DNA of 34,582 nt from a virus. Taxonomy: Duplodnaviria; Heunggongvirae; Uroviricota; Caudoviricetes. Numbering within the stretch: the stretch's first letter is position 1; the number at the start of each line of letters is the position of its first letter. The stretch lies in the IMG/VR virus record IMGVR_UViG_2623620495_000015; one strand, given 5' to 3'. The notes beneath the pieces were generated by a model. The model ran no database searches. It was not told where the DNA came from and saw nothing but the letters and a program-made list of their open reading frames with translations. This document shows, piece by piece, positions 1-19,714 of this stretch. Made by a program: the position numbers and the translations under genes.

Positions 1-237
1 ATGATGGTTAGAAATGAAGTAATGAACCTGGACTGGCACCGCGAGTACATTGTCGCAGCTGTGCACACCAAAGGTTTTACGTTGCGTGAACTGTCTGTTC
101 GCGCTGGTCTAAAAAAAGACTCTTTAAAAAATGCATTGTATCGCTCATGCCCTAAATATGAACGCATCATAGCCGATGCTATTGGTGTGGAACCTGCGGA
201 GATCTGGCCAAGCCGGTATGCCAGTAAGGCGGCGTAA
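1..237 (+). CDS. ner: Ner-like DNA-binding transcriptional regulator
   Basis: 78-aa ORF; C-terminal ...AIGVEPAEIWPSRY resembles Mu Ner (from memory); TAATG overlap with the transposase start. Confidence 0.75.
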   Translation: MMVRNEVMNLDWHREYIVAAVHTKGFTLRELSVRAGLKKDSLKNALYRSCPKYERIIADAIGVEPAEIWPSRYASKAA

Positions 238-2279
238 TGTTTTATTCAGCCAATGAACTGGCCGGTCTTACTGGTTTGCCCGGTACAGTTCAGGGGGTGC
301 GCTGGACGCTCAATCGGATCACAGAGACGCACCCGGAATGGAAGCGCAAGCGTGAAGGCACCAAAGCATTCGAGTATCACATCGACTGCCTGCCCGCTGA
401 AGCGCAGAAGGTTTTACGTAAGCGCCTGACTCATCAGGTCCTGGAAGATGCACAACTGCCCGCCGTGGTTGAGCAGAAGGCAGTTAAAAACGTCGCCGTT
501 CGCGATGAACTGGAAGTGATGGTCAAATGCCCGGAACTGGCATTACGCGAAGTTCAGGCACTGACCGACAAGCAAAAGGCCATCGCTGATGCGCGGATAT
601 TGCTGGCTACTGAAGTGCATAAACTGCGTGAATACGCAGGAATGTCCAGGACGGCGGCGATAAAACACATCGTTGATGGTATCCGCCAGGAGGCTTTGCC
701 CGAGCGCGTTATTGTGGCAGGTAATACCGCCAATGCCCGACAGGGTAAGCGAACTGGCGTCAGTACAGGGAGTTTACAGGAATGGTATTCCTCCTGGCTG
801 ATGGCGCGCGGTGATGCCAATCAGTTACTGGCGTTACTGGCCCCCGGTCATCATAAGGGAACACCGTGGGAGCAGGTCTGGTGGTTGAGCGATTTCTTTA
901 TGTTCTATCGCTCATGGAAGCGCCCGACCGTTGAATATGCGTATCGCGAGTTTTCAGCCTGGTGGCATGAAAAACACGCGAATGATGCGGGAATGCTGGC
1001 GGCACTGCCTTCAGTTCACGCAGTAAGACGGGTGTTAAGCAACGTCCCGGTGATTGTTAAAGAGCGTTTCCGCTCCACCGGTTCAGCCTGGCGTTCGCTC
1101 AATCCCTTTGTGCGGCGCGACTGGAGCACATTACCGGTTAATGCGGTATGGGTCGGGGATGGTCACTGCATGAAAATGACCGCGTTTAACCCCCTGACCG
1201 GCAATATTTTTCGGCCAGAAGTGACGCTGGTTATGGATGCGGGTCAACGCTTTGTTGTGGGCTGGTCACTGTCCCTGTCGGAGAACGTGGTGGCCGTTGC
1301 TGACGCATTGCGTCATGGCATGTCACAACACGGAATACCGCTGATTTATTACTCCGATAACGGGGGCGGTGAAAAAAACCGGGTACTTGATGCCGATATT
1401 ACCGGGATTCTGCCCCGGCTGGGTGTGGAGCATCACACAGGGATACCAGGTAACCCACAGGGGCGCGGGGTGATTGAAAGGCTTAACAAGGAAATTCCCC
1501 GGGATGTGGCCTTGAGCTTCCAGACGTACTGCTCAAAGGGAGCAGACAAGGAAACCGTAATGATGCAGCAACGGATTATGCAGTCAGCCATTAAGGCCAC
1601 CCACAAAGGGAAAGAGCTGACAAAACGGCAGGTTAAGGCGAGGGATGAAATCCCTACCTTTGAGCAACTGATGGCAGCCATAGAGCTGGAGGTCAGACGC
1701 TATAACAACCGGCCACACAGCAGCCTTCCCCGCAAAGAGGATGGCGAATATTACAGCCCGGCAGCGTATCGCCGGAAACTGATAAAAGAGCAGAATGTTG
1801 AAATTGATTTCCTGTCGCCGGAAGAACTGCATGAAATGTTCAGGCCGGAAGTAACGCGCAAAACTTTTCGCGGGGAAATTCAGTTATTCAACAATATTTA
1901 TTACTCGTATGAGCTGGCAGCAGAGCACGGGAATGAAGTCAGGGTCAGTTACGATATTCATGATGCAAACAGTGTCATTGTCCGGCGGGCTGATGGCTCT
2001 TATATCTGCGACGCCATCTGGAACGGTAACAAGGTTGATGCCTTCGCTAAACCAGTTATCGAACAAAAACTGGAGAAACGCGTCAGGGGCCGCATTGCAC
2101 GGGCCACGCAGAAAATCGAAGAGGCTAAACGCGAGCTTACCCCGGCTATTACGCAGAAACCTGACTTTAATTTTGGATTTGGTCTGGAGCACAAGGAGGA
2201 AAAGAAAAAAGAAGAACTTTATTTCTTTGTATCCGAGCGTGACCGCAATTTAAAGAAAGACGGTACAAACAACCGTTAA
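237..2279 (+). CDS. A: Mu-type DDE transposase (MuA-like)
   Basis: 680-aa ORF immediately after ner and before a MuB-like ATPase; length and position match Mu A (663 aa); recognisable similarity to Mu transposase from memory. Confidence 0.88.
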   Translation: MFYSANELAGLTGLPGTVQGVRWTLNRITETHPEWKRKREGTKAFEYHIDCLPAEAQKVLRKRLTHQVLEDAQLPAVVEQKAVKNVAVRDELEVMVKCPELALREVQALTDKQKAIADARILLATEVHKLREYAGMSRTAAIKHIVDGIRQEALPERVIVAGNTANARQGKRTGVSTGSLQEWYSSWLMARGDANQLLALLAPGHHKGTPWEQVWWLSDFFMFYRSWKRPTVEYAYREFSAWWHEKHANDAGMLAALPSVHAVRRVLSNVPVIVKERFRSTGSAWRSLNPFVRRDWSTLPVNAVWVGDGHCMKMTAFNPLTGNIFRPEVTLVMDAGQRFVVGWSLSLSENVVAVADALRHGMSQHGIPLIYYSDNGGGEKNRVLDADITGILPRLGVEHHTGIPGNPQGRGVIERLNKEIPRDVALSFQTYCSKGADKETVMMQQRIMQSAIKATHKGKELTKRQVKARDEIPTFEQLMAAIELEVRRYNNRPHSSLPRKEDGEYYSPAAYRRKLIKEQNVEIDFLSPEELHEMFRPEVTRKTFRGEIQLFNNIYYSYELAAEHGNEVRVSYDIHDANSVIVRRADGSYICDAIWNGNKVDAFAKPVIEQKLEKRVRGRIARATQKIEEAKRELTPAITQKPDFNFGFGLEHKEEKKKEELYFFVSERDRNLKKDGTNNR

Positions 2280-2296: not shown

Positions 2297-3190
2297 ATGA
2301 GTTTAATTACGCAATTAAATGACGTAATGGCCCGTCGCGGCTATACGCAGACCCACGTAGCCCGTGCTATTGGGCGTAGTAACGCCGTTATTAACCAGTA
2401 TTTGCAGGGTAAATATCAGGGCGATATCGCTGATATCGAAGAGCGAATTTCTGCCTTTGTCAGCCGTGAACGGGAGAAAGAAAACAATCGCCGTGTTAAA
2501 GCAAATTTTGTTGCCACCAATATGGCTGCCAAAGGACTGGAAGTGCTGGCCTACGCTCACCTGGAATGTGAAATCTGTGTACTGTATGGCGCAGCAGGCC
2601 TTGGCAAAACAATGATTCTGCGTGAATACGCAGCCAGAAACCGGGATGCGGTCCTGATTGAGGCTGACCCGGGCTACACAGCCAGGACACTGCTTGAGGA
2701 GTTGTGCCGCCAGCTGGGGGTAAAGGTTCGCGGCAACATTCACGAACTGATTGATGCCTGTGTGCGCGAACTGGGTGATTCCGGTCGTCTGCTGATGGTG
2801 GACGAGGCTGAACTGCTACCCTATCGCGCACTGGAGGTTCTGCGCCGTCTGCATGACAAGGCGGGTATCGGGATTGTCCTGGCGGGTATGCCACGCCTTC
2901 TGATTAACCTCAAGGGGCGTCGTGGTGAGTTCGCCCAGTTATACAGCCGTGTTGCGCTGGCGCTTAACCTGGGCGACACGCTGTCGCAGGAAGATTTTAA
3001 CCAGATAGCCACAGAGCTGATGCCGGAAGCCGTTGAACCGGAAATCAGCGAGGCGCTTTACACGCGCTCGTTGGGTAATGCCCGCCGTCTGTTCAAACTG
3101 GCGCGCGGTGTGTACCGGATTTGTGATATCAGCGATGCCCCCGTCAGCGTGCAAGCTATTGATGATTTCGCAGAAATGTTAATTCACTGA
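2297..3190 (+). CDS. B: MuB-like AAA+ ATPase, transposition target DNA activator
   Basis: 297-aa ORF; Walker A GAAGLGKT; MVDEAE Walker B-like; N-terminal HTH-like segment; follows the transposase as in Mu. Confidence 0.85.
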   Translation: MSLITQLNDVMARRGYTQTHVARAIGRSNAVINQYLQGKYQGDIADIEERISAFVSREREKENNRRVKANFVATNMAAKGLEVLAYAHLECEICVLYGAAGLGKTMILREYAARNRDAVLIEADPGYTARTLLEELCRQLGVKVRGNIHELIDACVRELGDSGRLLMVDEAELLPYRALEVLRRLHDKAGIGIVLAGMPRLLINLKGRRGEFAQLYSRVALALNLGDTLSQEDFNQIATELMPEAVEPEISEALYTRSLGNARRLFKLARGVYRICDISDAPVSVQAIDDFAEMLIH

Positions 3191-7432: not shown

Positions 7433-8055
7433 GCAAGATGAAAGAGCGCGGCATGATTTTTAATGATGCGATGGTCAGGGCCATCCTCGAAGGCAGGAAG
7501 ACGCAGACTCGCCGACCTGTAAAAAATGTCGGGGCGGATAACTACCTGGTTATCAGTAAACCGACAAAGAAACGCAATGGTGTCTATATCCATGTTATGG
7601 ATGCACCGAAACATGGTTTATGTCCGTTCGGTAACGTTGGTGATCGCATATGGGTACGTGAAACATTCAACGCTTTTTGGCTGGATAACGATGTCATTCA
7701 GGAAATCAAAAATGGTGTCTCTCTGGCTTCTGAACTGTGTGATTACAAGGCTGATTACTCAGATAGTAGCAATCTAGCTGAGGGTTGGACCCCGTCAATT
7801 CACATGCCGCGATGGGCATCGCGTATTTTGCTGGAAATTACCGACGTGCGTGTGGAACGGCTGCATGACATGAGCGAGGCAGATGCTAAAGCGGAAGGCG
7901 CATCTCCGGCGACGTACAAGATTACACCGCCGGAAGCTGTTTATCGCGTTGGCTTTGGTGATATCTGGCGCGGTATTTACGGGCAAGAGAACTGGTTATC
8001 TAACCCGTGGGTATGGGTAATTGAGTTTAAGCGTATTCAGGAGGGCAACCAGTGA
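7429..8055 (+). CDS. hypothetical protein, possible ASCH-like fold (208 aa)
   Basis: GTG start 6 nt after GGGAGGAG; motifs GRKTQTRRP and GDRIWVRETF recall ASCH-type domains (memory, unverified). Confidence 0.45.
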   Translation: MSKMKERGMIFNDAMVRAILEGRKTQTRRPVKNVGADNYLVISKPTKKRNGVYIHVMDAPKHGLCPFGNVGDRIWVRETFNAFWLDNDVIQEIKNGVSLASELCDYKADYSDSSNLAEGWTPSIHMPRWASRILLEITDVRVERLHDMSEADAKAEGASPATYKITPPEAVYRVGFGDIWRGIYGQENWLSNPWVWVIEFKRIQEGNQ

Positions 8056-8645
8056 GCAACATTAATTACCAGGCACTGCGAATGGCGGCAGAAAATGCAA
8101 CCCCTGGCGAATGGTGTTCTGATAATTACTATGGGGTAATTGCTGATGCCGGACTGAACGCAAATTACTACATAGCATCATGCTCAGGACCAGATAATCG
8201 TGCCAATAAGCGATTCATAGCAGCAGCCAATCCGGCTGCTGTGCTGGCACTGCTGGATGAACTGGAGTATTACAAATCACGCGAAGAGCGGGTTACAAAG
8301 CTGGTTATGGATAACTCGACAAGTTGGGATGCTCTTTACAAGAAGCTGGAAGCCGCAGAGAAGCGCATAGCAGAACTGGAAGCACGGGAAACAAAACCAG
8401 CCAAAGGCGAAGTTCTTGTCGTTGTATCTGGTTTTACTGGTTGCGGAAAAAGCGCCATTGCCGGGGAAATAGAAATCGCGATGAAGGCTATTGGTGTACC
8501 GGTTAAGTGGACTAATGGCGATGCAGAAAAGCGCATGACTGGCGCTGACTGGCTGACAGCAATTGAGATGTACAAACCAACTGTGCGCATCGTGGAAGTT
8601 AATGTGCCACGCGTCGCTGGCATTCGCATCAAAGGAGGTGAGTAG
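8052..8645 (+). CDS. ead/Ea22-like protein
   Basis: GTG start after AGGAGG; motif AANPAAVLALLDELE plus coiled-coil AAEKRIAELEARE, typical of Ea22-like proteins (memory). Confidence 0.5.
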   Translation: MSNINYQALRMAAENATPGEWCSDNYYGVIADAGLNANYYIASCSGPDNRANKRFIAAANPAAVLALLDELEYYKSREERVTKLVMDNSTSWDALYKKLEAAEKRIAELEARETKPAKGEVLVVVSGFTGCGKSAIAGEIEIAMKAIGVPVKWTNGDAEKRMTGADWLTAIEMYKPTVRIVEVNVPRVAGIRIKGGE

Positions 8646-8814
8646 TGCGTGTGGCATGTATCGGCTTGTTACCGTACCCGACTCGTTTTTGGGCTTCTGC
8701 GCTAATTGCAAAGCCGCATGTCCTGATGGCTGACAGCATCATCCCTGCACCGAAACGCCGTACAGGCATTGCGGCGGCGAGACGAGCAGCAAAGAAACGC
8801 AGGAGAACAAAACG

Positions 8815-8997
8815 ATGAAAAACCGTAAGGCAAAAATTCTGTTAGCTCGCAGAAACGGTGTTGGGATCTGGCGATGGTTGAGGATTAGTAACAGACGAGT
8901 GAGGTTGACGGGGTGTTGCGGGGTGATGGGGCACAGTTGTTGCAAAAAGCCCAGCGCGGCGCAAAACCGCTGGAAGAATCACACTAACGCAAAGTAA
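8815..8997 (+). CDS. doubtful small basic ORF (60 aa)
   Basis: ATG with AGGAG RBS, but extremely K/R-rich with CC..CC; may be non-coding. Confidence 0.2.
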   Translation: MKNRKAKILLARRNGVGIWRWLRISNRRVRLTGCCGVMGHSCCKKPSAAQNRWKNHTNAK

Positions 8998-9016
8998 TTA
9001 AATAATAACCAATAAC

Positions 9017-9040
9017 AGACCAAAACATATGTTTTGGTCT
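9017..9040. repeat. perfect 24-bp palindrome AGACCAAAACATATGTTTTGGTCT, with a third half-site GTTTTGGTC at 9053-9061
   Basis: Read directly from the sequence; lies just upstream of the ATG at 9065. Confidence 0.7.
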
Positions 9041-9064
9041 GCCAAAAGTAGTGTTTTGGTCATT

Positions 9065-9343
9065 ATGAAGATTGAACAAATCGGAATGGCAGCCTTCCGG
9101 CAACAGGCTGAAAGCGGTGGCGTGGATGAGTTCGTCGTGCAGCGGTTCGGTGGTGTATATCACCTCTTCGCTGTGAATCGCCGCGCCGGGGTGTCCTATT
9201 TTCTACAGGAACGCCGTGGCGATTACAAGACGTGGCTGTCTCTTGATCGTGCCGCTGCGTTCCTGTCAGGGATTGGCGTTTCACGTTTTACCGTGCGTTT
9301 TGAGGATAACAAACATGCTGAAAAAGATGATCGGAGCCATTAA
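9065..9343 (+). CDS. hypothetical protein (92 aa)
   Basis: Internal ATG of track ORF 9029..9343; overlaps the gemA start by 29 nt. Confidence 0.4.
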   Translation: MKIEQIGMAAFRQQAESGGVDEFVVQRFGGVYHLFAVNRRAGVSYFLQERRGDYKTWLSLDRAAAFLSGIGVSRFTVRFEDNKHAEKDDRSH

Positions 9344-9713
9344 AGCCGGTCAGGCGTATCTGGGGTGGGATGATGCCCTTTATCGCCAGACGCTGGCCCG
9401 CCTGACAGGTAAAACCAGCACCACTCGCTGCAACCTCGATGAACTGCGCATCATCCGGGAATATATGCACGAACAGGGATTCCCGCGTAAAGCGCCCACC
9501 GGTAAAGGTCGCCGTCCCCGTGTTGCAATGAGCAGAAAATCGGTATTATCAAAAATTGAAGCGTTGCTGGCTGATGCCGGTCGTTCCTGGGGGTATGCGG
9601 AAGGACTGGCATCTCACATGTATAAGCAACATGTGATCGAATGGCTGACGGATGAACAGCTTTTCGGGGTGATGGTGGCGCTGGTTAAAGATTCAAGAAG
9701 GAGGAGTAAATGA
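9315..9713 (+). CDS. gemA: GemA-like protein (Mu gp16 family)
   Basis: ATG with GAGG RBS (track ORF 9216..9713 begins earlier at a non-ATG codon); MLKKMIGAIKAGQAYLGWDDALYRQTLARLTGKTS... matches the Mu gp16/GemA family from memory. Confidence 0.65.
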   Translation: MLKKMIGAIKAGQAYLGWDDALYRQTLARLTGKTSTTRCNLDELRIIREYMHEQGFPRKAPTGKGRRPRVAMSRKSVLSKIEALLADAGRSWGYAEGLASHMYKQHVIEWLTDEQLFGVMVALVKDSRRRSK

Positions 9714-10213
9714 TTAAAAAACGGTATTTTCTTTTAGTGGCGTTCATTTTGTCTTTTCCTGCCGTTGCTGAATGGCACACATGGGTACAAAAAGATGCTT
9801 TTGATGATCAACAAACAGCCATGATGGTGGGTATTGGAACAATGGATTTTGGGATTGCTTTAGACTGTTCGAATGACTCACTATTTGCTGGTATTACAAA
9901 AGAAACAGATAAAGTTAACATTGCGTTATTCGGTTCATCAAAAGATTTAATATTTAGGATAGACGAATTTCCAGCAGTAAAGACCACAGGGGTACTCGCT
10001 GCACGAAATGAAAAAATGTATATCTATAAAATAGAGGACAAACAAAAAATCAAAGAGTTGTTATCTTATCTTCGAAAAGCCCAAAAACGTGTTTTAGCTG
10101 GTGTAAAAGAACCGAGTGAAGAACGAGGCGCATCGTTTAATGTAACACCGACAGGTTCAACAACCGCTGTTAATAAATTTATCAAAGCCTGTAACATTAA
10201 GATTCCAGAGTAA
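9710..10213 (+). CDS. secreted/periplasmic protein of unknown function (167 aa), AT-rich moron
   Basis: Strong RBS GAAGGAGGAG; Sec-type signal peptide MIKKRYFLLVAFILSFPAVA/EW; GC content visibly far below flanking phage genes; own terminator downstream. Confidence 0.6.
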   Translation: MIKKRYFLLVAFILSFPAVAEWHTWVQKDAFDDQQTAMMVGIGTMDFGIALDCSNDSLFAGITKETDKVNIALFGSSKDLIFRIDEFPAVKTTGVLAARNEKMYIYKIEDKQKIKELLSYLRKAQKRVLAGVKEPSEERGASFNVTPTGSTTAVNKFIKACNIKIPE

Positions 10214-10223
10214 CTTAATAGCC

Positions 10224-10249
10224 GCCCCTGCCATGTAGGGGCTTTTTTT
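10224..10249 (+). terminator. intrinsic terminator after the secreted-protein gene
   Basis: GCCCCT (10224-10229), loop GCCATGT, AGGGGC (10237-10242), then T7 run (10243-10249). Confidence 0.6.
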
Positions 10250-10255
10250 GTGGTC

Positions 10256-10283
10256 TGTACAGGCGATCATGTATGGCTATAAT
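10256..10283 (+). promoter_or_regulatory. candidate sigma70 promoter upstream of the Mor/C-family gene
   Basis: -10 TATAAT at 10278-10283; 16-nt spacer; -35-like TGTACA at 10256-10261. Confidence 0.35.
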
Positions 10284-10312
10284 AACAGTAAGTTACTACC
10301 GGAGACGCCATC

Positions 10313-10780
10313 ATGCAGACCTTCAGTGAAACAGATCTTCGCGATGCGCAGGCACTGCTGCCCGATTCCGTGCAGCAACTGATTAGCGTGATTGGCTTCC
10401 CCGCCCTGACCCGGTTGATTCGTTCTTTTGGTGGCGTGACGTTAAGTGGTAAAACCGGCGCACACGCCGAACGCACCGGCGGTGTCCATGCCCTGTTACA
10501 TGACGTGCTGACCGAAGACGAAATCAACAAACTGATCCGCTTTCTTGGCGGTGCTCCGTTTTACATCCCCCGTTGCGATCATGCGTTACGTGCCCTGCGT
10601 AACACCCGTTTTATGGCTGATTTACAGCAGCATGTAAAAGACGGGTGCTCACACCGGCAGGCGCTGGCGCTGCTCTGTCCCCGCTACGGGATTTCAGACC
10701 GGTATGCATGGCAACTGATACACCGACGACAAAAACAGACTTCGCTGAAAAGCCCCACCCAGGTGGGGCTTTTTGATTAA
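10313..10780 (+). CDS. Mor/C-family transcriptional activator
   Basis: 155-aa ORF with GGAG RBS; C-terminal region with FYIPR motif and HTH-like segment resembles Mu Mor/C (memory); sits after gemA as in Mu. Confidence 0.7.
   Translation: MQTFSETDLRDAQALLPDSVQQLISVIGFPALTRLIRSFGGVTLSGKTGAHAERTGGVHALLHDVLTEDEINKLIRFLGGAPFYIPRCDHALRALRNTRFMADLQQHVKDGCSHRQALALLCPRYGISDRYAWQLIHRRQKQTSLKSPTQVGLFD
10751..10775 (+). terminator. intrinsic terminator overlapping the 3' end of the Mor/C-family gene
   Basis: GCCCCAC (10752-10758), loop CCAG, GTGGGGC (10763-10769), then T5. Confidence 0.5.
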
Positions 10781-10807
10781 TGAGACTCAGAAAAAAGGAG
10801 ACACGAA

Positions 10808-11095
10808 ATGATGAGTTCTGACACCAATATCGACTACGCAGCACTCGGTGAATATACCGCATTTTCAGACAAGGCCCGGGATGCAGCCCGTCGCCGACAT
10901 GCTGAGATGTGTAATTTATCCAGTTATCTGGCGAGACAGGCCCAAAGCCCGGAGTCAGAAACGAATCATAATGAAGTGCTGTCAGCCGTAAACAGGATGC
11001 TGGACGCAGAACGGGAAATGCGTAATGCCGTGGAAAGAGCTAACCTGTTGGCGCGGGCATGTTATAAGCCACCATTAAAACTCGCTTCCCTTTAA
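10808..11095 (+). CDS. hypothetical protein (95 aa)
   Basis: Strong RBS AAGGAG 6 nt upstream of ATG; no recognisable domain. Confidence 0.4.
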   Translation: MMSSDTNIDYAALGEYTAFSDKARDAARRRHAEMCNLSSYLARQAQSPESETNHNEVLSAVNRMLDAEREMRNAVERANLLARACYKPPLKLASL

Positions 11096-11122
11096 CCCAT
11101 CCAGATAATCAACCTGCCGGGG

Positions 11123-16688: not shown

Positions 16689-17841
16689 CGATGTTGACCT
16701 GGGATATGCGTACACCCTGAAGCCGGAAGAAGCGATTAAGTATTTCGAGAGCAAGGGATACGTTATCGGCTTCCGCTGGCACGATGTGAAGGATATTGCA
16801 AACGCCCGGGCGTTCACGGTGGCGGGTGTGCTGAAACTGGATGTGCTGAAGGATATCCGTGATGGCCTGACGGCGGCACTGGCTGACGGCGGGACGTTCC
16901 GGGAGTTTGCAGCACAACTGGAACCACTGCTGGAATCAAAAGGCTGGCTGGGTAAAAAACTGATTGTGGACGAGGACACCGGCGAACTGCATGGCAGACA
17001 ACTGACGCCGCGCCGGTTGCGCACGATATTTGATACCAATATTCAGTCGTCATATAACGCCGGACGTTATCAGCAGCAGATGGCGAACGTGGCTGACCGG
17101 CCTTATTTTGAGCGCGTGGCAGTGATGGACCTTCACACCCGCCCGAAACACGCCGCCCTGAACGGCTTTACCGCCCGGGCGGATGACCCGGTCTGGGAGT
17201 TTTTATACGCCCCGGACGGTTATCACTGCCGCTGCCGTATCCGGGCGCGTTCGGCGTCTGATGTGGAGAAATACGGCCTGACGGTGCAGAGCAGCGAGGG
17301 GCGACTGGTTGAGGTTGAGCAGGAATATGGCCAGCCAGGCCAGACCATCAGAACAATGGGGCTGAAGATGCCGGACGGCTCCGTGTATACCGCCGACCCG
17401 GGCTTCGGATTTAATCCCGGTCGGGTGGCATGGCAGCCGGAACCGGAAAAATATGATTACCGCAGTGCCCGCCAGTATGTCACCGGCACTCTGACCGGAC
17501 CGGATTTTGCCCGGGGACTGGCGAACGTCAGCGAACTGGATGCACGCCAGCGATATCCGCTGGCCATCCGTTCACCGGAACAGGTCGCCGCCACGGGCGC
17601 TGCACGGCAGACGGTAAACCTTACGGCTGACGTTATGAAGCGCCTCAGTGCAGCAGACACGCCCCCGACCGCCGCCGACTATGTGCTGATGCAGCAGACC
17701 ATCGAACGGGCGGAGCATGTCACGCAGGACGGCAACGCGTGGCGGTATGCGTTACAGTCGGGCGACCGCTGGTCAGTGGCGACGGTTGAGGATGACGTGC
17801 TGACAGACTGGGTTATGCAGGACACCCCGGAGGCATCATGA
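16675..17841 (+). CDS. head morphogenesis protein (Mu F/gp30-like)
   Basis: 388-aa ORF overlapping the portal stop; position and recognisable similarity to Mu F-type proteins. Confidence 0.75.
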   Translation: MPTADDVDLGYAYTLKPEEAIKYFESKGYVIGFRWHDVKDIANARAFTVAGVLKLDVLKDIRDGLTAALADGGTFREFAAQLEPLLESKGWLGKKLIVDEDTGELHGRQLTPRRLRTIFDTNIQSSYNAGRYQQQMANVADRPYFERVAVMDLHTRPKHAALNGFTARADDPVWEFLYAPDGYHCRCRIRARSASDVEKYGLTVQSSEGRLVEVEQEYGQPGQTIRTMGLKMPDGSVYTADPGFGFNPGRVAWQPEPEKYDYRSARQYVTGTLTGPDFARGLANVSELDARQRYPLAIRSPEQVAATGAARQTVNLTADVMKRLSAADTPPTAADYVLMQQTIERAEHVTQDGNAWRYALQSGDRWSVATVEDDVLTDWVMQDTPEAS

Positions 17842-18389
17842 GCGGCGGTAAACTGGATATTAAGATTGATTTAAGCGCGTATAACACCACGCTGGGGAAA
17901 CTGATTCGTTCCGTGAAGGACCGGCGCGACCTGATGACGGCGCTTGCAGGCTCCATGCTGGATGCGGTTGAGACTAACCTGGAACAACAGGGGCGCCCGA
18001 AATGGATGGGCTGGAGTCCGGCTTATGCGAAGCGACGCGGCCCCGGGCAAATCCTTCAGAAGTCCGGGCGACTGGCTGCCAGTATCCGCTCTGCGGTTAA
18101 CAATAACGAGGCCACGGTCGGGACAAACGTCCGTTATGCCCGTATCCACAACGAAGGCGGCGAAATCCGCCATCAGGCACGGACGCAGAACCTGTATTTT
18201 AAACAGTACAAAAACGGCAGCGTCAGCACCCGCTTTGTGAAAAAGCGCAACAGTAATTTTGTGCAGAGTGCAACGGTCGGAGCGTATACGGTCAACATGC
18301 CCGCGCGCCCCTTCCTTCAGCTTGTGCAGGATGACATCGACGAGCTGGAGAACACCGCAAACCGCTATTTTGCGCGTGTGATTGACTGA
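17838..18389 (+). CDS. virion morphogenesis protein (Mu G/gp31-like)
   Basis: 183-aa ORF, ATGA overlap with F; contains IHNEGG motif. Confidence 0.65.
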   Translation: MSGGKLDIKIDLSAYNTTLGKLIRSVKDRRDLMTALAGSMLDAVETNLEQQGRPKWMGWSPAYAKRRGPGQILQKSGRLAASIRSAVNNNEATVGTNVRYARIHNEGGEIRHQARTQNLYFKQYKNGSVSTRFVKKRNSNFVQSATVGAYTVNMPARPFLQLVQDDIDELENTANRYFARVID

Positions 18390-18481: not shown

Positions 18482-18506
18482 CGTTTTTAAAAGGGTTTTA
18501 AAAACG
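18482..18506. repeat. inverted repeat CGTTTTTAAAA-GGG-TTTTAAAAACG (11-bp arms) in the G-I intergenic region
   Basis: Read directly; AT-rich palindrome about 40 bp upstream of late motif site 2. Confidence 0.7.
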
Positions 18507-18544: not shown

Positions 18545-18557
18545 GTGCTGAACACCC
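18545..18557 (+). promoter_or_regulatory. candidate late-promoter activator site 2 (GTGCTGAACACCC), upstream of the head protease/scaffold gene
   Basis: Exact 13-mer; followed by TCCACAGTACCCC, resembling site 1. Confidence 0.5.
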
Positions 18558-18589
18558 TCCACAGTACCCCGTGTTCCCCTTCCGTCATC

Positions 18590-19714
18590 ATGCCGCGTAT
18601 GAAGATGAACATTGCGGCATTAAGCCTCGAAATTACTAAAGCAACCCACAGCGAAATCCAGCTGTTTCCGGCGGGCGAGTTCAGCGCGGTGGATGGTCGC
18701 CCACATACCGATGAAGTCGAAAGCGGTAAATGGGTGCTGACCGCTGAACTGGCCGCGCAGCTTGTCGCGCAGGTGGCCGCCCGTACCACGCCTTTTGTCA
18801 TTGATTACGAACATCAGACGCTGCGCGCCGTAAACAACGGCAAGCCCGCCCCGGCGGCGGGCTGGTTCAGCCAGGTGGAATGGCGTGAAGGTGTGGGCCT
18901 GTATGCCACCGGTGTGGAGTGGACGGAGAACGCGGCGGCCATGATTGCCGCCGGTGAGTACAAATTTATTTCCCCTGTTTTTGCCTACAACAAGCGCGGC
19001 GAAGTGCTGGAGCTGTTACACGCTGCGCTGACCAATACCCCGGCGCTCGACGGTATGGACGCGGTCATGCTGGCTGCGGCCAGCCGTCTGGCGAGTCTGT
19101 CAACTGAAACGGAGACCACAACAGTGGATGAAGAACTGTTAAACGATTTGCTGTCCAGTCTGCGCTGGACGCTGAACCTCCCGGCAACCTCAACGCCGGA
19201 AGACATTAAAAATGAGCTGCAAAAAATTGTTGATGCCATCTCCGGCGGCAAAGGAACGGCAGCGGCTTCTGTTGGTCTGCTGGCCCTGCTGAATCAGAAA
19301 GACGAGCAAATCGCCAGCCTGTCAGCAAATGCTTATGACCCGTCAAAACACATTTCCCTTGCTGCCTTTGAAGAACTTCAGGGGCGTTATGCCGCACTGG
19401 CGCAACAGTCCGGTGAGGCCGAAGCCGGGGCACTGATTCAGGCGGCGCTGTCTGACGGGCGACTGCTTCCGGCGCAGGAAGACTGGGCGAAAGATTACGC
19501 CAGCCGCGATATCAACGGCTTTAAGTCCTGGCTGGAGAACGCGCCGAAACTTGTTGCGCTCAGTCAGACCCAGACCGGCGGCAAGCCACCCAAAACGCCG
19601 TCGCCTGCCCCGGCGCAGATTAAAACCGGCGATGACGTCGATGTCGATATCGCCATTTGTTCCATGATGGGCGTTGATCCAGAGGATGTCGCCCGTTACG
19701 CAGGAGATGAGTAA
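18590..19714 (+). CDS. head maturation protease/scaffold (Mu I/gp32-like)
   Basis: About 375 aa; N-terminus NIAALSLEITKATHSEIQLFPAGEF typical of Mu I-family proteases (memory); ATG choice among 18590/18599/18605 uncertain. Confidence 0.7.
   Translation: MPRMKMNIAALSLEITKATHSEIQLFPAGEFSAVDGRPHTDEVESGKWVLTAELAAQLVAQVAARTTPFVIDYEHQTLRAVNNGKPAPAAGWFSQVEWREGVGLYATGVEWTENAAAMIAAGEYKFISPVFAYNKRGEVLELLHAALTNTPALDGMDAVMLAAASRLASLSTETETTTVDEELLNDLLSSLRWTLNLPATSTPEDIKNELQKIVDAISGGKGTAAASVGLLALLNQKDEQIASLSANAYDPSKHISLAAFEELQGRYAALAQQSGEAEAGALIQAALSDGRLLPAQEDWAKDYASRDINGFKSWLENAPKLVALSQTQTGGKPPKTPSPAPAQIKTGDDVDVDIAICSMMGVDPEDVARYAGDE

Follow-up and report, generated by a model that had tools for sequence, protein, structure and literature searches.

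The 34,582-nt stretch analysed here (the window; virus record IMGVR_UViG_2623620495_000015) is a Mu-like prophage of Escherichia coli, and immediately ahead of one of its early open reading frames (ORFs), which we call ORF92 and which starts at the ATG at position 9065, lies a short inverted-repeat sequence at 9020-9059. Sequence comparison shows it to be a real cis element under selection that had not been described before, a leader of ORF92 made up of four boxes in two dyads. It belongs to a familiar class, the inverted-repeat leaders and operators, and is restricted to a small prophage family. Its most likely role is that of a cis leader controlling ORF92 expression, acting either through an RNA fold or as a DNA operator bound by protein.

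A sequence-only reading of the window had described AGACCAAAACATATGTTTTGGTCT at 9017-9040 as a perfect palindrome, with GTTTTGGTC present again at 9053-9061, just upstream of the ATG at 9065. Inspection of the letters agrees on each of these points, although the palindrome actually takes in one more base on each side and is the 26-bp CAGACCAAAACATATGTTTTGGTCTG (9016-9041). No other perfect palindrome in the 34.6-kb window is as long. In 100 simulations under a first-order Markov model the arms never reached 13 nt (the maximum averaged 9 and was 12 at most), and the sequence directly before the 9065 ORF is indeed non-random. There are exactly three occurrences of GTTTTGGTC in the window, all of them at this locus; allowing one mismatch gives 14 matches where 8.55 are expected, so that it is not dispersed in the prophage, and further copies of the 18-bp dyad (two mismatches) occur at chance level outside the locus. 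The three half-sites recognised by the same reading exist, but a fourth, the CCAAAA at 9042-9047 supplied by GCCAAAAG (9041-9049), had been missed. The element is instead made of two complete dyads, CCAAAA-CATATG-TTTTGG and CCAAAA-GTAGTG-TTTTGG, joined by TCTG and repeated with a 22-bp period, and it ends 5 nt ahead of the ATG. We number the half-sites as boxes 1 to 4 in order of position (Table 1).

The clearest indication of selection comes from close relatives, the E. coli group, for which E. coli genomes and IMG/VR supplied 22 intact copies, 19 different sequences in all; seven metagenome copies and four further E. coli genomes were inspected afterwards. Among the 19 sequences nothing varies at the 24 positions of the boxes or in the 4-nt linker (28 sites with zero diversity), and the N6 centres between the boxes have a nucleotide diversity of 0.19. 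Within ORF92 itself the third-codon positions have a diversity of 0.106, with 49 of 93 sites variable, and the first and second positions one of 0.02. If the 28 sites were evolving like third-codon positions, the chance of finding all of them invariant would be ~0.47^28, or ~1e-9. Comparison of these sequences indicates that the boxes are under purifying selection and that the centres are free to vary, the central 6-nt alleles among close relatives being CATATG, AGTATT, CATGTT, TATATG, CATGTG, CATGTA and CATACG. Because the centres differ while the boxes are invariant, the perfect palindrome, whether counted as 24 or 26 bp, is allele-specific and not the conserved feature, a point on which the sequence-only reading needs correcting.

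This conserved segment has a sharp left border. Relatives carry at least three unrelated upstream modules, and BLAST homology to the window starts exactly at 9016/9017; further left, the spacer at 8998-9015 is loosely conserved (AAyCAA-N3-CAG) in three different upstream contexts. The E. coli-group element is present in 58 of 5426 complete E. coli genomes, only within this prophage type, and at one to three places per genome, tracking the number of prophage copies.

The same arrangement extends to more distant loci, in Leminorella, Intestinirhabdus, Erwinia and uncultured samples, whose ORF92 homologues are 55-76% identical. The 6-6-6-4-6-6-6 geometry precedes the ATG of every fetched homologue except the most divergent, L068 (55% identical), where only a rearranged remnant of the element is left. 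It is thus seen in ~12 lineages (Escherichia, Leminorella, Intestinirhabdus, Erwinia and metagenomes), and across these the distance from the end of the element to the ORF92 ATG is 2-10 nt. Erwinia, for example, has CCAAAA TAATCA TTTTGG TAAA CCAGAA TAACCG GAATGG CGTT ATG, and L028 has CCAAAT GAATAC ATTTGG TGAA CCAAAG TAATCG GATTGG TGCTGT ATG. Near-invariant across lineages are the CCA that opens boxes 1 and 3 and the TGG that closes boxes 2 and 4, spacer lengths are constant, and both boxes and spacing are kept in genera whose ORF92 proteins share only 62-76% identity. Box 4 supplies a normal GGA Shine-Dalgarno sequence outside E. coli; the E. coli group, with a perfect TTTTGG in this box, has no recognisable Shine-Dalgarno sequence. 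Scans of genome and metagenome contigs for more lineages added almost nothing.

The sequence-only reading had also tied the element to gemA, whose start lies 275 nt past the palindrome. That tie is indirect, since the element stays with ORF92 in L066, whose gemA is at a distance of ~2 kb, and in L055 and L069, whose loci have no gemA. The element accompanies ORF92 even without an adjacent gemA and hence belongs to ORF92 and not to gemA.

The reading that we favour, if tentatively, is that of an mRNA leader with two isoenergetic folds that bury the Shine-Dalgarno-less start of ORF92, where we infer that RNA is the active form and translation the controlled step. Within a long + strand early transcript the element would form a very stable structure able to fold in two ways. 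For the window allele the tandem fold (boxes 1:2 and 3:4) and the nested fold (1:4 and 2:3) are predicted at -21.0 and -21.1 kcal/mol, respectively, and in other alleles the two lie within 1-5 kcal/mol of each other. The predicted RNA fold of 8995-9080 has an energy of -21.5 kcal/mol (z = -4.2), and E. coli-group alleles have z of about -5 to -6. Complementary flanks (CAGA/TCTG and GA/TC) add pairs beyond the boxes. In ~30 E. coli-group sequences just two substitutions fall at paired positions, A9019G and C9042T; each gives a G.U pair in the + strand RNA and would be an A.C mismatch on the opposite strand. A double change of TC to CA at 9060-61 in L027 creates two extra Watson-Crick pairs with the UG at 9040-41, and L028 and L029 share a symmetric double change (CCAAAT/ATTTGG) that preserves pairing. 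The pattern of conserved boxes and variable centres fits hairpins whose stems are conserved and whose loops are free, as judged from these alignments. An RNA leader is also supported by the same-strand gene array, by the lack of a conserved sigma-70 promoter over the element, by its position abutting the start codon and by the coincidence of box 4 with the Shine-Dalgarno region (GGA) outside E. coli.

In mechanistic terms, the tandem hairpins and the nested hairpin alike would bury box 4 and the 3-5 nt preceding the AUG at 9065. With no Shine-Dalgarno sequence in the E. coli group, a start buried in this way would leave independent translation of ORF92 throttled or gated. Initiation could possibly proceed from the A/U-rich, unstructured flank at 8998-9015 acting as a standby site or, alternatively, once a sequence-specific partner binds the boxes. 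The mutually exclusive hairpins put forward by the sequence-only reading find a counterpart in the isoenergetic tandem and nested folds, but the implied switch does not follow: both low-energy folds bury the same ribosome-binding region beside the AUG, so that alternation between them is no obvious on/off control and would not by itself expose the start.

Several observations weigh against an RNA leader. Covariation is not significant, with 86.9% of cells paired in the tandem fold and 89.3% in the nested fold, values that barely exceed the shuffle controls and give the two folds equal support. Distant lineages fold weakly (z of -1 to -3), dyad 2 keeping 3-4 of its 6 pairs, and they keep box sequence and spacing despite this weak folding, which argues for recognition of sequence and geometry and not of structure alone. 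Loop and linker lengths are constant, a property more typical of protein-DNA phasing (22 bp, approximately two helical turns) than of free hairpins, and certain alleles have a palindrome that runs through the centre, a symmetry not needed by RNA hairpins. In addition, two unrelated phage loci (L035 and L039) have four boxes in this geometry away from a start codon.

The main alternative, which we rank close behind although we consider it doubtful, is a tandem DNA operator in which two 18-bp dyads, with centres 22 bp apart and on the same face of the helix, are bound cooperatively by a dimer of dimers. Such a regulator could come from the host or from the phage itself (ORF92, GemA or some other early protein), and it would repress a weak internal promoter of ORF92-gemA-(mor) or block read-through from the early promoter. 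A dimeric DNA regulator had been suggested by the sequence-only reading, and this remains a live alternative, with two dyads and four half-sites in place of the three then counted. In its favour, the box sequence is kept across genera beyond what complementarity demands, with a geometry that is invariant in 12 lineages as well as in L035 and L039, and the 22-bp start-to-start spacing that places the two dyads on one face does not vary in any lineage with the element. IMG/VR contains 106 other single ACCAAAA-N6-TTTTGGT sites, and at +/-22 from them no second unit is present, which makes the tandem arrangement specific. Cooperative operators typically show degenerate outer half-sites in which CCA...TGG is conserved, and centre-symmetric perfect palindromes are found among the alleles.

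The phage Mu semi-early promoter is annotated directly upstream of gemA (AF083977 8151-8217), and L008 has a terminator-like hairpin just upstream of the element together with TTAACC-16-TATATT overlapping box 1 and spacer 1, both of which would suit an operator. Sigma-70 promoter scans of the window, L002, L008, L035 and L039 nevertheless gave none that is conserved, and none at all in L002 or L035. The only consensus match in the window, ATCACA-17-AATAAT at 8978-9006, falls in a flank for which other contexts have a different sequence, and the L008 match is found in that locus alone. The absence of a promoter conserved over or beside the element in the E. coli group counts against an operator; the three upstream contexts diverge leftwards from 9015, so that a -35 element would not be conserved. 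The 2-10 nt between the end of the element and the ATG also leave scant room for a 5' untranslated region, and an operator leaves the complementary flanks and the G.U-compatible substitutions unexplained. No candidate protein came up, the ORF92 model lacks a helix-turn-helix, and the repressor/Ner operator region of the prophage uses a different motif. To our knowledge, none of the consensus sites of the host factors FadR, UxuR/ExuR, IscR type 2, TyrR, Fis and IHF fits the element in register.

That repressor/Ner intergenic region, which lies outside the window, was read in the left end of a near-identical prophage (L065 3455-3702). It is packed with direct and inverted repeats of TAGATTTAAACA and TGTTTAAATCTA. 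These presumably serve this Mu-like phage as its operators, and they differ from those of Mu itself; the TAGATTTAAACA/TGTTTAAA repeats there include no CCAAAA-N6-TTTTGG. A search for the half-site elsewhere in the prophage, which the sequence-only reading had proposed, gave no copies beyond chance and none that suggest a Ner, GemA or Mor regulon. We rejected a regulon of Mor-, C- or Ner-type sites, given that copies of both the 9-mer and the dyad are at chance level outside the locus.

Occurrences of the motif elsewhere bear on which protein might recognise it. An exact three-box scan of IMG/VR found the ORF92 prophages and five other loci, two of which have four boxes in register and no ORF92. 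In the first of these, L035 (5942-5981), the element lies in a lambdoid early-left region, past two terminator-like hairpins and before a small ORF and a Fic/Doc toxin gene; this position upstream of an antitoxin-Doc pair is typical of an operator. In the second, L039 (6305-6342), a phage contig, TTTTGG-CTAG-CCAAAA-CCTAGG-TTTTGG-ACGC-CCAAAA has the same boxes and spacing shifted by one box, between gp88-like and portal genes. The L035-type site is collapsed to a single unit in six complete E. coli genomes (L071 904-921), and the spacer of this unit, GTGTCG, is an exact recombinant of the L035 spacers GTGT|TG and CGAT|CG, which points to loss of a unit by unequal recombination. These six genomes are not among the 58 that carry ORF92, and tblastx found no protein shared between the contigs; ORF92 cannot therefore be the common partner of both types of site, which we count against an operator bound by ORF92, and we rejected it in that role. 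We also rejected single CCAAAA-N6-TTTTGG units as a widespread phage element, as IMG/VR has over 100 such single sites, none of them tandem, that resemble chance matches. Tandem four-box elements are rare and specific, and their recogniser is not necessarily ORF92.

A further possibility, which we consider unlikely, is that the four boxes are an autogenous operator, in which ORF92 as a dimer of dimers would bind its own leader, as RNA or DNA, and set the level of ORF92 and, via translational or transcriptional coupling, that of GemA and Mor. The ORF92 family is very rare, with 20 proteins in a search of 5.8 billion sequences and ~9 clusters at 50% identity among 1.84 billion representatives. 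ORF92 has no Pfam match and no sequence match in the PDB, and it falls in phrog_7844, a family of unassigned function; a BFVD search gave unnamed proteins only. The AlphaFold model (pLDDT 81) is a beta-alpha-beta3-alpha-beta domain, free of any helix-turn-helix, with eL38 and the FtsH N-domain as its best matches. ORF92 and three distant relatives have a faint full-length match to the partition-associated NCBIfam family ParC (E of 0.003-0.07), which is a lead and not an assignment. The ORF92 gene is frameshifted in two E. coli relatives (L009 3037-3312; protein P0012), and the four-box element is intact in L009, the one whose DNA was read.

We think it rather unlikely that the element serves RNA processing or stability, the nested fold (two 6-11-bp helices with an internal loop) or the tandem hairpins forming an RNase III-type site or a barrier to exonucleases and so uncoupling the half-life of the variable upstream module from that of the conserved ORF92-gemA-mor segment. 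Such a role would suit the strong predicted folds, the placement of the element exactly at the border between mosaic accessory modules and the conserved block, and the L035 and L039 copies, which lie between transcription units and not beside a start codon. A scan of 8500-9600 against Rfam 15 (E up to 10) returned no family near its threshold; the best match, Plastid-psbA-2 over 9018-9061 (E = 0.83), is a 3'-UTR (3' untranslated region) stabiliser stem-loop family, but its 19.8 bits, where 55.8 are required, are no evidence of membership. The helices are, however, short and A-U rich for RNase III, distant lineages still conserve the element where its structure is weak, and processing does not require the fixed short distance to the ATG seen in 12 lineages.

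Termination or attenuation through alternative 1:2, 2:3 and 3:4 pairing is very unlikely. Four mutually complementary segments do permit exclusive pairings, and a terminator scan marks one terminator-like site on the window's minus strand, where the flank is T-rich, and in L035 and L039 it marks the 2:3 hairpin with the T-rich box 4 behind it. No + strand site was called over 8700-9400, however, and neither hairpin is followed by a U-tract (GCCAAAAG and UCAUUAUG follow them), each box contributes two G-C and four A-U pairs, and a minus-strand terminator would have no obvious target among neighbours that are all on the + strand. There is no conserved leader peptide, the ATG at 9029 (boxes 1-2) being absent in E2348/69 and other alleles. 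For comparison, what looks like a genuine GC-rich terminator lies at 10748-10773. It is highly improbable that the element is a functionless recombination scar or junction palindrome, formed where accessory modules swap and kept by linkage to ORF92: homology among relatives with three upstream modules does begin exactly at the left edge of the palindrome, and the L035/L071 pair does show loss of a unit via unequal recombination of two units, but 28 sites are invariant beside freely varying spacers and synonymous sites (~1e-9) and the boxes and spacing are retained across genera.

Several known systems bear comparison with the element. The TyrR boxes of E. coli have the consensus TGTAAA-N6-TTTACA, and adjacent strong and weak boxes are bound cooperatively. 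They resemble the element in the 18-bp 6-N6-6 dyad, the AAA-N6-TTT core and the pairing of sites approximately two helical turns apart, but the outer triplets here are CCA/TGG and not TGT/ACA, so that this is not a TyrR site, and no promoter overlaps it. In the com-mom system of phage Mu, a translational operator hairpin occludes the start codon region and is opened by the zinc-finger protein Com. That system likewise involves a Mu-group phage and a stem-loop over a start region; it differs in lying at the right end of Mu, in its sequence and in using a single hairpin and Com, and no Com counterpart was identified here. The trp and ermC leader attenuators have four consecutive, mutually complementary segments and exclusive folds as the element does, but the element is without a leader peptide or a U-tract terminator. 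REP/BIME palindromes of enterobacteria are GC-rich and intercistronic, occur in hundreds of copies per genome and can stabilise upstream mRNA. They too lie between the genes of a single operon as palindromic units in tandem, with orientations that alternate; the element, unlike them, is A/T-rich and single-copy. Start-associated sequences of Cluster K mycobacteriophages are inverted-repeat motifs immediately 5' of start codons, with many per genome and serving many genes. The likeness is in a conserved inverted-repeat motif directly 5' of phage start codons, and the difference is that those phages are actinobacteriophages with an unrelated sequence, whereas the element occurs once per prophage and before one gene. 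Both the start-associated and the extended start-associated sequences of Cluster K are documented in PMC3203893.

A positional parallel is the semi-early region of phage Mu, whose promoter, upstream of gemA, is annotated at AF083977 8151-8217 (PMID 9454718). The two correspond in genome layout, each standing where the gemA-mor segment of the early region is entered, and Mu has a strong hairpin between this promoter and the gemA Shine-Dalgarno sequence. They are unlike in that Mu 8100-8240 shows no similarity to the element and that no conserved promoter is found at the element. Mu was not among the blastn matches to 9000-11100 in phage records, and tblastn of phage records gave no Mu homologue of ORF92.

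The features of the element and of the surrounding early region are collected in Table 1.

Table 1. Boxes and spacers of the ORF92 leader and genes of the early region (positions in the window).
Feature	Position	Strand	Remarks
Transposase	237-2279	+	
B-like ATPase	2297-3190	+	
Ead/Ea22 gene	8052-8645	+	Pfam E = 2e-21
Two small ORFs	8645-8818, 8815-8997	+	
Spacer, A/U-rich, predicted unstructured	8998-9015	+	Between the stop of the 8815-8997 ORF and the element
26-bp palindrome CAGACCAAAACATATGTTTTGGTCTG	9016-9041	+	Dyad 1 plus complementary flanks CAGA/TCTG
Box 1, CCAAAA	9020-9025	+	Invariant in 19 distinct E. coli-group sequences; CCA kept in 12/12 ORF92 lineages with the element
Spacer 1, N6, CATATG	9026-9031	+	Hypervariable; loop or internal loop in RNA models
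Box 2, TTTTGG	9032-9037	+	
N4 linker, TCTG	9038-9041	+	Invariant in E. coli group; other sequence elsewhere, always 4 nt
Box 3, CCAAAA	9042-9047	+	Sole E. coli-group variant is TCAAAA in L188
Spacer 2, N6, GTAGTG	9048-9053	+	Hypervariable
Box 4, TTTTGG	9054-9059	+	GAATGG or GATTGG with GGA Shine-Dalgarno in non-E. coli lineages
ORF92, 92 aa	9065-9343	+	phrog_7844, no Pfam; 3' end overlaps gemA start
gemA	9315-9713	+	Pfam GemA E = 9e-18; own GAGGA Shine-Dalgarno within ORF92 3' end
Variable ORF	9710-10213	+	Between gemA and mor
Mor-family activator	10313-10780	+	

Genes from the transposase to the Mor activator are all on the + strand, and a 67-nt gap separates the end of the second small ORF (8997) from the ORF92 start (9065). 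E. coli E2348/69 and other strains carry nearly identical prophages, in which NCBI annotates the same 279-nt ORF from the equivalent of 9065. Upstream of this gap, 8052-8982, comprising the Ead/Ea22 gene and the two small ORFs, has 79-93% identity to lambdoid, P22-like (phiV10) and P1 phages; it is a lambdoid accessory module within a Mu-like early region, and the similarity ends ~35 nt before the palindrome. The gene at 9710-10213 has a signal-peptide-like N-terminus and belongs to phrog_19473; its slot holds other ORFs in L001 and L002 and is empty in L003, making it a second variable slot of the gem-mor segment. The second-longest perfect palindrome of the window, AAAAGCCCCACCCAGGTGGGGCTTTT at 10748-10773, has a GC-rich stem with A4 and T4 flanks at the extreme 3' end of the Mor gene. 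This has the look of a classic bidirectional intrinsic terminator and corresponds in position to the one annotated downstream of mor in phage Mu. A further inverted repeat, CGTTTTTAAAAGGGTTTTAAAAACG (18482-18506), with 11-nt perfectly complementary arms, lies about mid-prophage in the gap between the ORFs at 17838-18389 and 18545-19714.

The element has a narrow range, being confined to ~1% of complete E. coli genomes plus a few other Enterobacterales, and it would gain wider impact only if a new binding protein or mechanism came to light. In molecular terms little is understood of the semi-essential early region in Mu-like phages, especially of its gem segment, and here a short cis sequence at the entry to the ORF92-gemA-mor block is under unusually clear purifying selection. 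If ORF92 does bind its own leader, the element would be a previously unrecognised checkpoint between early and middle expression in Mu-like phages. With its exact anatomy defined, the element offers a cheap experimental entry to an uncharacterised family of phage proteins and perhaps to the timing with which Mor is expressed.

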